DNA from: Escherichia coli
Lineage (GTDB): Bacteria; Pseudomonadota; Gammaproteobacteria; Enterobacterales; Enterobacteriaceae
Reading direction: 5' to 3' (one strand)
Assembly: GCF_030384885.1 (NCBI RefSeq)
Contig: NZ_CP128613.1
DNA length: 64,000 nt
Under the pieces are notes generated by a model. The model was not told the origin of the DNA. It saw nothing but the letters and a program-made list of their open reading frames with translations, and made no database searches. Shown here piece by piece: positions 18,632 through 62,080 of the stretch (its first letter is position 1; each line of letters opens with the position of its first letter). A program made the position numbers and the translations under genes.

Positions 18632-18676
18632 TTCAGACATCACTGGCGTTACCCACAAGGGTAACGCCAGTTCACA

Positions 18677-55327: not shown

Positions 55328-55368
55328 GCGCGGCGCATTATCCTGCCTGAGGGTAATGCGCCGCGCCA
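55328..55368 (+). terminator. long GC-rich palindrome downstream of puuP (terminator or REP-like)
   Basis: gcgcggcgcattatcctgcctgagggtaatgcgccgcgc; no clear T-run follows. Confidence 0.4.
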
Positions 55369-60485: not shown

Positions 60486-61292
60486 ATGATCGAAACGCTG
60501 CTTGAAGTGCGTAATTTAAGTAAAACGTTCCGCTACCGGACCGGCTGGTTTCGTCGTCAGACCGTAGAAGCGGTAAAACCCTTGAGCTTTACGCTACGTG
60601 AAGGCCAGACACTGGCGATCATTGGCGAGAATGGTTCTGGTAAATCCACGCTGGCGAAAATGCTGGCGGGAATGATAGAACCGACCAGCGGCGAGTTATT
60701 GATTGACGATCATCCGCTGCATTTTGGCGATTATTCCTTCCGTAGTCAGCGTATTCGCATGATTTTTCAGGATCCTTCGACCTCGTTGAATCCCCGTCAA
60801 CGTATCTCGCAGATTCTTGATTTTCCACTGCGCTTGAACACCGATCTGGAACCTGAACAGCGTCGGAAACAGATTATTGAAACAATGCGGATGGTTGGGC
60901 TGCTACCGGATCACGTCAGTTACTATCCGCATATGTTGGCACCCGGGCAAAAACAGCGTCTGGGGCTGGCGCGCGCGCTGATATTGCGTCCAAAAGTGAT
61001 TATTGCCGATGAAGCCCTCGCCTCACTGGATATGTCGATGCGTTCGCAGTTGATTAATCTGATGCTGGAGTTACAGGAAAAACAGGGCATTTCGTATATT
61101 TATGTCACCCAGCATATTGGGATGATGAAGCACATTAGCGACCAGGTACTGGTGATGCATCAGGGCGAGGTTGTCGAGCGAGGTAGTACTGCGGATGTGC
61201 TCGCCTCTCCGCTGCACGACCTCACTAAACGACTGATTGCCGGTCATTTTGGCGAGGCATTGACGGCGGATGCGTGGCGTAAGGACCGTTAA
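60486..61292 (+). CDS. sapF: ABC ATP-binding protein SapF
   Basis: 268 aa; Walker A GENGSGKST. Confidence 0.92.
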   Translation: MIETLLEVRNLSKTFRYRTGWFRRQTVEAVKPLSFTLREGQTLAIIGENGSGKSTLAKMLAGMIEPTSGELLIDDHPLHFGDYSFRSQRIRMIFQDPSTSLNPRQRISQILDFPLRLNTDLEPEQRRKQIIETMRMVGLLPDHVSYYPHMLAPGQKQRLGLARALILRPKVIIADEALASLDMSMRSQLINLMLELQEKQGISYIYVTQHIGMMKHISDQVLVMHQGEVVERGSTADVLASPLHDLTKRLIAGHFGEALTADAWRKDR

Positions 61293-61362
61293 TTTTCTGA
61301 ATCAAGCTTGCAGAATATTCACCTCATTCTGACAGGGAAATTCATCCTGTCAGAATGAAGGG

Positions 61363-61809
61363 ATGGATAAAATAAAAGCAAATGCCCGCGATTTAAGACG
61401 CAACCTCACCCCGCAGGAGCGAAAGTTCTGGCGATATCTTCGCAGCCGACGTTTTGCTGATTTCAAATTTCGCCGTCAACATCCGGTGGGGAATTACATT
61501 CTCGATTTTGCCTGTTGCTCTGCACGTTTAGCGGTAGAGCTTGATGGTGGGCAACATGATTCAGCTATCGCGTATGATACCAGGCGCACGCGCTGGCTTG
61601 AGTCCCAGGGCTGGACCGTGCTGCGTTTCTGGAATAACGAGATCGATCATAATGAAGAGGCGGTTCTGGGGGAGATTCTGCAGGAACTGAACCGCCGGTC
61701 ACCCTCACCCCAACCCTCTCCCCAGAGGGGCGAGGGGGCTGTATGTGCCTGTTTGTTGCTGCGCAGGCAAATGAACAAGCGGTGCCGGGGATCATTCTGC
61801 AGGAACTGA
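61363..61809 (+). CDS. ycjD: DUF559 (endonuclease-like) protein YcjD; C-terminal end uncertain because the ORF runs into a repeat
   Basis: N-terminal ~110 aa read as the conserved protein; the last ~35 codons (PSPQPSPQRGEGAVCAC...) are encoded by the repeat at 61671..61930. Confidence 0.7.
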   Translation: MDKIKANARDLRRNLTPQERKFWRYLRSRRFADFKFRRQHPVGNYILDFACCSARLAVELDGGQHDSAIAYDTRRTRWLESQGWTVLRFWNNEIDHNEEAVLGEILQELNRRSPSPQPSPQRGEGAVCACLLLRRQMNKRCRGSFCRN

Positions 61810-61930
61810 GCCGCCTGTTACCCTCTCCCTGAAAGGGCATGGGGGCTGTATGTGCCTGTTTGTTGCTGGGGTGACAACGCGCACAATCGGTCCCCTCGCC
61901 CCTCTGGGGAGAGGGTTAGGGTGAGGGGAA
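61671..61930. repeat. composite repeat: ~37-bp inverted repeats flanking a tandem direct duplication (MITE-like)
   Basis: ccctcaccccaaccctctccccagaggggcgaggggg (61701..61737) pairs with its near-perfect reverse complement cccctcgcccctctggggagagggttagggtgagggg (61892..61928); between them attctgcaggaactga(a/g)ccgcc and gggggctgtatgtgcctgtttgttgctg each occur twice. Confidence 0.7.
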
Positions 61931-62080
61931 AAGCGCACACCCGTGCCCACATTCCTGCCAACTATAGCCACCCACAGCCAGGTTGATTATAATAACCGTT
62001 TATCTGTTCGTACTGTTTACTAAAACGACGAATCGCCTGATTTTCAGGCACAACAAGCATCAACAATAAGGATTAAAGCT

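Follow-up and report, generated by a model that had tools for sequence, protein, structure and literature searches.

In IS10, a read-through RNA that enters from outside the element holds both arms of an inverted repeat and hides the translation start site, whereas the element's own transcript starts within or after the repeat and escapes this pairing. Such fold-back inhibition in IS10/Tn10 reportedly guards against fortuitous activation by external promoters. At the left end of IS200, a terminator hairpin acts against impinging transcription, and another inverted repeat after it sequesters the start of translation (PMC4513863). Here we describe an inverted repeat in front of the small Escherichia coli gene ycjD, found in a 64,000-nucleotide stretch of contig NZ_CP128613.1 (hereafter the window), and compare it with these systems.

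The locus order in E. coli is sapD-sapF-ycjD-fabI. The ycjD gene is single-copy and its product matches DUF559 (Pfam E=1e-46; DUF559/MTES_1575), a family with a nuclease fold. It was present at the sapF-fabI site in approximately 3,377 of 5,426 complete genomes, the remainder of which carry the eefRABCD efflux operon between sapF and fabI in an orientation convergent with sapF; that the two occur as alternatives at this site agrees with PMC12817139. In the window, sapF ends with a TAA stop codon at 61290-61292 (plus strand), directly after which the conserved upstream region of the cassette type discussed below begins, and ycjD occupies 61363-61809 on the same strand, its DUF559 domain spanning residues 3-110 and its start lacking a Shine-Dalgarno sequence at a usable distance. 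The window allele is rare, being identical in 5 of the 5,426 complete genomes, whose annotation lists ycjD as a pseudogene. The allele shares approximately 87% identity with the common one and lacks the normal stop codon, giving an open reading frame of 148 residues. The K-12-type alleles have ATA in place of the ycjD ATG (K-12 locus extract 1755-1761), so their annotated start is the GTG one codon upstream, and about 1,480 of the 3,377 ycjD-bearing genomes fall within the identity band of this allele class. Together, the K-12-type ATA and the lost stop of the window allele suggest that selection on ycjD may be relaxed in E. coli. A conserved upstream mini-ORF, suggested by the ATGAGGTGATG overlap in K-12 types, was rejected as it is conserved neither in the window nor in the paralogues.

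An initial annotation of this DNA had reported a perfect 12-bp inverted repeat with a 10-bp spacer between sapF and ycjD. The flanking genes were as claimed, and the two 12-mers were located at 61325-61336 and 61346-61357. Reading of the bases and an exhaustive scan corrected the dimensions, as the perfect arms are 13 bp long (TCATTCTGACAGG at 61324-61336 and CCTGTCAGAATGA at 61346-61358) and are separated by 9 nt (gaaattcat, 61337-61345). When two mismatches were allowed the arms extended to 18 nt, and the 3' arm then terminated on the A (61363) of the ycjD ATG; the sequence context near 61,300 reads ttcacctcattctgacagg gaaattcat cctgtcagaatgaaggg ATGG. We refer to this structure as hairpin 2 (61319-61363, plus strand), with a left arm at 61319-61336, a loop at 61337-61345 and a right arm at 61346-61363. 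Its stem of 13-18 bp begins 27 nt past the sapF stop when the imperfect arm is counted from 61319.

The inverted repeat is far beyond chance. The full palindrome pattern, with up to three mismatches, had a single match in the window and no match in 100 shuffles. Inverted repeats with perfect arms of 12 bp or more and loops of 3-20 nt were found at three distinct sites in the 64-kb window versus a mean of 0.13 hits per shuffled window. The window's only other perfect repeats of at least 12 bp with a loop of up to 20 nt lie at 18642-18671 (ACTGGCGTTACCC-acaa-GGGTAACGCCAGT) and 55328-55366 (GCGCGGCGCATTA-13-TAATGCGCCGCGC). Folded as RNA, the 116-nt region around the palindrome gave -32.1 kcal/mol (z=-3.6) and hairpin 2 alone gave -24 kcal/mol. 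An Rfam scan of the palindrome region returned sub-threshold, microRNA-type noise, with scores of at most 20.7 bits against gathering scores of at least 70.

Within Escherichia the pairing of the stem is conserved. The common ycjD-type alleles have a better palindrome than the window, TCACCTCATTCTGACAAGA-7-TCTTGTCAGAATGAGGTGA, with 19 bp. In an alignment of 11 Escherichia alleles, 88.9% of cells were paired versus 34-47% for slid partners, and the clearest switches on both sides were seen at three pairs (U:A/C:G, G:C/A:U and A:U/G:C). Loop lengths across the Escherichia alleles were 3, 7, 9, 10, 11 and 13 nt.

Strains that have no ycjD also carry the stem. Its core, CATYCTGAC...GTCAGRATG, was found directly after the sapF stop in eef-type E. 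coli, Escherichia sp. MOD1 and E. albertii, all without ycjD, where it is placed in a spacer of about 50 nt between the convergent sapF and MFS genes and has loops of 3-13 nt. The arms of the eef-type stems are perfect and show lineage-specific compensatory changes, and in the E. coli eef types the stem is followed by a moderately T-rich tail, TTCATTACTTTTG. That a perfectly paired stem persists in the eef-type strains shows a value, or a mechanism of maintenance, that is independent of ycjD.

These observations bear on the first alternative that has to be weighed, namely that hairpin 2 is a terminator without a U-tract, or a barrier to 3' exonucleases, at the 3' end of sapABCDF, which acts independently of ycjD and has been retained since sapF and eef were convergent neighbors. 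In all of the Escherichia lineages examined the hairpin comes after the sapF stop, regardless of what is downstream, and the eef-type spacer stems have the perfect arms, the compensatory changes and, in E. coli, the T-rich tail that this alternative would favor; as the stem is kept in eef-type strains without ycjD, the alternative stays substantial. However, the window and K-12 alleles have no T-run, and in the eef strains the full hairpin was not called as a terminator by the scan. In addition, homologous hairpins precede DUF559 genes at loci unrelated to sapF, and other genera carry unrelated sequence after sapF. Across 73 non-Escherichia genera or species the sequence following sapF was unrelated, often with a different terminator or a 120-nt sapF-fabI spacer, and this ruled out a conserved sapF terminator across the Enterobacteriaceae.

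The transcript ends listed for K-12 also weigh against this alternative. The tail of hairpin 2 reads AAGGGATGGATAAAAT on the plus and GGTGAATATTCTGC on the minus strand, there is no T/U run on either strand, as had been claimed, and the terminator scan did not call it. In K-12 the hairpin lies at 1351801-1351757 on the minus strand. The curated and thresholded lists for K-12 (Adams 2021) have no Term-seq 3' end between 1350208, which is the fabI terminator, and 1361446 on either strand, and no Rho-termination entry between 1350047 and 1361395. As the lists hold no minus-strand entry in 1350208-1361395, there is no listed 3' end at the K-12 hairpin. The statement in the initial annotation that the palindrome is not a canonical terminator therefore agrees with both the missing T-run and the curated lists. 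These data argue against a major transcript 3' end at hairpin 2 in K-12, although low sap expression could hide one. The same annotation had let the significance of the palindrome hang on conservation in relatives and on an associated transcript boundary: conservation was found within the genus, and no 3' boundary was mapped. On balance, we consider a role confined to the sap 3' end to be unlikely, yet deserving of serious weight, and the two functions, at the sap 3' end and in the insulation of ycjD, are not mutually exclusive.

The evidence that ties the palindrome to ycjD came from other loci. Homologues of ycjD with 60-70% amino acid identity were found at two other chromosomal loci in other enterobacteria, one following hemW/yggW (Enterobacter, Lelliottia, Pseudenterobacter, Franconibacter and RIT691, with a rearranged version in Phytobacter) and the other adjacent to yfeX (Klebsiella and Kluyvera). 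Approximately 75 nt before the ATG, including two hairpins, aligned almost without gaps among the ycjD, hemW-locus and yfeX-locus cassettes, and revealed a common layout of hairpin 1, hairpin 2 and then CAGAAT, CAGAGT or CACTGT exactly 6 nt before the ATG, a distance kept in 13/13 aligned sequences. Hairpin 1 of the hemW-locus cassettes (TTCTGAA..TTCCAGA followed by T's) is terminator-like; that of RIT691 was called as a terminator on both strands by the terminator scan, and in Enterobacter and Lelliottia a stem with TTTT is evident. The window retains a 5-bp remnant, TTCTG at 61295-61299 and CAGAA at 61311-61315 (61295-61315, plus strand), which is a weak counterpart of that stem.

Pairing in hairpin 2 is also maintained across these loci. 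In the inner helix, 82.9% of cells were paired across 13 sequences versus 29-49% with slid partners, with changes on both sides at 4/9 pairs and wobble-preserving changes at three pairs, the commonest alternative pairs being 50:69 (CG/AU) and 53:66 (GC/AU). In this set of sequences G.T outnumbered A.C by 16 to 5, which favors the sense RNA as the form that pairs. The hemW-type hairpin 2 folded at -25 kcal/mol in the sense versus -15 in the antisense orientation, and in these cassettes the AUG itself pairs with a CAU. Hairpin 2 was strong where the upstream gene is co-oriented (sapF, hemW) and degraded where it is divergent (the yfeX locus and Phytobacter), and in the latter the CAGAGT-6-ATG spacing was retained despite the degraded hairpin. 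That the strength of hairpin 2 tracks the orientation of the upstream gene is suggestive, as it is seen over four locus contexts only. Based on these comparisons, the best explanation of the palindrome, although as a whole we hold it with somewhat less than even confidence, is that it belongs to a cassette of the ycjD family of DUF559 genes (Vsr-like nuclease fold) and not to sapF. No terminal repeats, target duplications or transposase were identified at the DUF559 cassette.

The hairpin 2 of the ycjD-less strains can be read in the same light. Eef-type E. coli N1131 and Ecol_448, Escherichia sp. MOD1 and E. albertii keep hairpin 2 and miss a 22-nt stretch that holds most of hairpin 1. As the hairpin kept by the eef-type strains is homologous to the upstream regions of DUF559 genes elsewhere, the ycjD cassette, or at least its 5' end, probably occupied the sapF-fabI site before eefRABCD. 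This order suggests a history that differs from the reading of repeated loss of eef in PMC12817139.

On the left, the ycjD and eefRABCD haplotypes part exactly at the 3' foot of the stem, and on the right their boundary is the fabI promoter. About 90 bp upstream of fabI there is a strong promoter-like site, TAGCCA-17-TATAAT (10/12 matches, 61965-61993), at the right-hand boundary where ycjD-type and eef-type haplotypes regain homology. In E. coli EC1722-1, the loop, homologous to window positions 61337-61345, is exactly inverted relative to other common alleles (AGATTAAAT to ATTTAATCT), which we read as the likely signature of a flip mediated by the inverted repeat or of a template switch.

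A boundary placed exactly at the foot of the stem, together with the precisely inverted loop, would fit an element that acts as DNA. Such a cruciform or hairpin would be the left end mark of a DUF559 cassette that moves or recombines, or a recombination breakpoint, and its symmetry would be kept up by intrastrand templated repair rather than selection on RNA. The occurrence of the cassette at three loci, with dispersed GC-rich repeats after it, would also fit, and templated correction is able to make apparently compensatory pairs in one step. However, the palindrome is single-copy per genome, neither target duplications nor a transposase were seen, evidence of recent mobility was not found, and the G.T-rich stems of the hemW type suit RNA better than cruciforms derived from a duplex. 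We regard an element of this kind as improbable.

The palindrome that we favor as part of the 5' module of a ycjD-family cassette also contains a promoter-like sequence. A sigma-70-like site lies within it on the plus strand (61329-61356), with a -35 hexamer CTGACA at 61329-61334, a 16-nt spacer, a TG at 61348-61349 and a -10 hexamer CAGAAT at 61351-61356. A mirror site is present on the minus strand (61326-61353; -35 at 61353-61348 and -10 at 61331-61326), with a predicted +1 at about 61319 that would direct transcription antisense into the 3' end of sapF. In the promoter scan, CTGACA-16-TGtCAGAAT gave 9/12 matches with a TG at -15/-14 on both strands. The plus-strand -10 ends at 61356, which places the predicted +1 at 61363, on the A of the ycjD ATG. 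No member of the family, among the aligned cassettes and the window, has a Shine-Dalgarno sequence at a workable distance, and a +1 on the A of the ATG without such a sequence fits the geometry of the window and of 13/13 aligned sequences. The exception in start codon is the K-12-type allele, whose GTG is a poor start for leaderless initiation.

The hexamers had been noted before. Genomic SELEX with RpoD holoenzyme produced a peak in the K-12 sapF-ycjD spacer, and CTGACA-16-CAGAAT was listed as a constitutive ycjD promoter (Shimada et al. 2014, PMC3946193); the resolution of the peak is that of the spacer and the hexamers were assigned in silico. In the accessible part of that paper there is no word of a palindrome, hairpin or mirror promoter, nor of a +1 that coincides with the ATG, and from it the sigma-70 holoenzyme of RNA polymerase is the sole protein with binding evidence in this spacer. 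Hits above the promoter scan threshold were confined to Escherichia, the ycjD-less E. albertii among them, while the hemW and yfeX cassettes (with -10 sequences CAGAGT or CACTGT) and the eef-type E. coli scored below it.

With scan matches on both strands, RpoD holoenzyme binding in the spacer to which the same hexamers were assigned (PMC3946193), and a constant distance from hexamer to ATG across paralogues, the palindrome might be no more than a plain sigma-70 promoter for ycjD with its mirror, the symmetry arising incidentally, since CTGACA is the reverse complement of TGTCAG, the sequence in front of AAT. Several findings run counter to this. The complementarity continues well past the hexamers, up to 19 bp in the common E. 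coli alleles, and the spacer and outer stem, in which a promoter demands no pairing, also show compensatory changes. In addition, eef-type E. coli keeps the stem and loses the hexamer spacing, and the hemW-type cassettes keep the pairing with a poor -35. A promoter alone is thus a rather doubtful account of the whole structure.

We propose instead that hairpin 2 is the second hairpin of an insulation module, similar to those of IS200 and IS10, that guards ycjD from read-through, an assignment which we favor tentatively and at somewhat less than an even chance. RNA reading through from the sap operon would contain both arms, and these would form a stem of 13-19 bp with a predicted energy of -22 to -33 kcal/mol, in which the start codon of ycjD would be buried together with the few purines in front of it. 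As a usable Shine-Dalgarno sequence is missing from ycjD, a read-through RNA with its start buried in the stem should stay untranslated. By contrast, a transcript from the internal sigma-70 promoter, with its -35 CTGACA in the left arm and the extended -10 TGtCAGAAT in the right arm, would start at the A of the ATG, and would be free of the hairpin and leaderless. Within this model, we infer the translational occlusion, the use of the promoter in vivo and the leaderless initiation. The initial annotation had offered the idea of an RNA stem that controls read-through from the sap operon: the RNA stem is supported by the compensatory changes in Escherichia and by the homologous cassettes, while control of sap read-through as such is not, occlusion of the ycjD start codon being likelier. 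Several observations stand against the insulation model, as the hairpin is also retained in eef-type strains that have no ycjD to protect, the window ycjD allele is annotated as a pseudogene, the K-12-type alleles must begin at GTG, and the promoter threshold is reached in Escherichia only.

Also counting against the model, public K-12 tracks of transcription start sites, Term-seq and ribosome profiling are stated to show antisense, not sense, activity at the ycjD 5' end (PMC12817139). Antisense to the 5' end of ycjD there is a 38-residue open reading frame (window 61350-61466, minus strand; K-12 locus extract 1655-1771), and a weak terminator-like hairpin with a T-rich tail also lies antisense to ycjD (window 61386-61403; K-12 locus extract 1719-1736). 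By analogy, an antisense regulator similar to art200 or RNA-OUT is conceivable at this position.

A perfect palindrome that overlaps a promoter-like site could also be an operator for a dimeric transcription factor controlling ycjD or sap read-through, and the initial annotation had raised a regulator-binding palindrome as one possibility. In the usual sense of the term this was not supported. The half-sites lie 3 to 13 nt apart depending on the Escherichia allele, there is no second site in the window or genome, and no regulator gene is adjacent. The genome-wide motif check that had been proposed for the palindrome found it to be single-copy, with a median of one place per genome in 3377 genomes. 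We therefore consider an operator very improbable. The idea of a regulon was likewise rejected, with six other half-site near-matches in the window versus about 2.6 expected and none arranged as an inverted repeat. The single copy also ruled out the identification of the palindrome as a dispersed repeat.

Dispersed repeats of another type are found downstream. A BoxC-like GC-rich repeat in reverse orientation (61702-61753, minus strand) forms the 3' end of ycjD, where it encodes ...SPSPQPSPQRGEG and is one arm of a 52-nt inverted repeat; a forward copy of this dispersed element is at 61876-61927 on the plus strand (CCCCTCGCCCCTCTGGGGAGAGGGTTAGGGTGAGGG). The GC-rich element occurs at a median of 18 places per E. 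coli genome, and its copy number and size are consistent with BoxC. A tandem duplicate of the ycjD 3' end follows the gene (61651-61770 and 61770-61877).

A metagenome scan for further enterobacterial cassettes yielded mostly distant, environmental DUF559 genes, which are informative on the GC-rich element and not on the fine covariation of the E. coli hairpin. Among 74 such genes, 57% had in the 70 nt upstream a perfect hairpin with a stem of 7 bp or longer versus 4% of control windows, and 74% had a GGGAGAGGG/GGGTGAGGG-type motif upstream versus none of the controls. The reverse complement of this motif was present at the DUF559 3' end in 54/71 loci with enough downstream sequence (76%), where it encodes ...PSPRPSP tails.

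We speculate, as a long shot, that DUF559 genes of the ycjD subfamily encode the partner protein of a hairpin repeat family, in the way that RAYT transposases are paired with REP elements. The gene would be bracketed by inverted copies that are GC-rich in most bacteria and are dispersed as BoxC-like elements in E. coli, and the palindrome between sapF and ycjD would be an AT-shifted copy of the left end. The Vsr-like nuclease would act on the hairpins, some of which have G.T pairs, or mobilize them, and the eef-type relic would represent a cassette older than eefRABCD.

Of the features described above, the hexamers had already appeared in PMC3946193 as a predicted ycjD promoter. In searchable papers there was no mention of the palindrome or its covariation, of the mirror promoter, of a +1 that falls on the ATG, or of homology to other DUF559 loci. 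What is established here is the structure with its conserved and covarying pairs, the relation to other DUF559 loci by homology and the promoter-like match, next to the published in-vitro binding of RNA polymerase in the spacer. The palindrome offers a concrete regulatory design, of insulation with a possible leaderless transcript, for the uncharacterized ycjD, a member of the widespread DUF559 family, and connects three hitherto separate observations, the SELEX-predicted ycjD promoter, the conserved two-hairpin 5' module of DUF559 genes at different loci and the hairpin that persists in eefRABCD strains. The hairpin relic in those strains bears on the recent proposal of repeated eef loss. As the mechanism would be of a known kind, basic concepts are unchanged.

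Among the known systems, an intrinsic (Rho-independent) terminator is like hairpin 2 in being a stable stem-loop just past a stop codon; hairpin 2 differs in that it has no U-tract, the top of its stem is AT-rich and it has no mapped 3' end in K-12. The REP/BIME, ERIC and BoxC elements are also extragenic palindromes in enterobacterial spacers, and BoxC-like copies lie 340-560 bp downstream of this one, but the sapF-ycjD palindrome is single-copy. With IS10 and IS200, ycjD shares an inverted repeat over the translation start, the right arm ending on the ATG; it is not a transposase-encoding element. An outer terminator-like hairpin is clear in RIT691, appears as a stem with TTTT in Enterobacter and Lelliottia, and is reduced to the 5-bp remnant in the window. 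Unlike the leadered IS10 mRNA with its ribosome-binding site, ycjD's own transcript is predicted to be leaderless. The differences from IS200 are that ycjD is a gene of DUF559 nuclease fold and not a known transposase, with no mobility seen, that it has a start codon only and no Shine-Dalgarno sequence to be sequestered, and that its proposed promoter is within hairpin 2 rather than between the hairpins; a ycjD counterpart of the IS200 antisense RNA art200 is only hinted at (PMC12817139). The likeness to the IS200 left end lies in the arrangement itself, as in both there are two successive inverted repeats before one small gene, in the same order as hairpin 1 with its T-run followed by hairpin 2.
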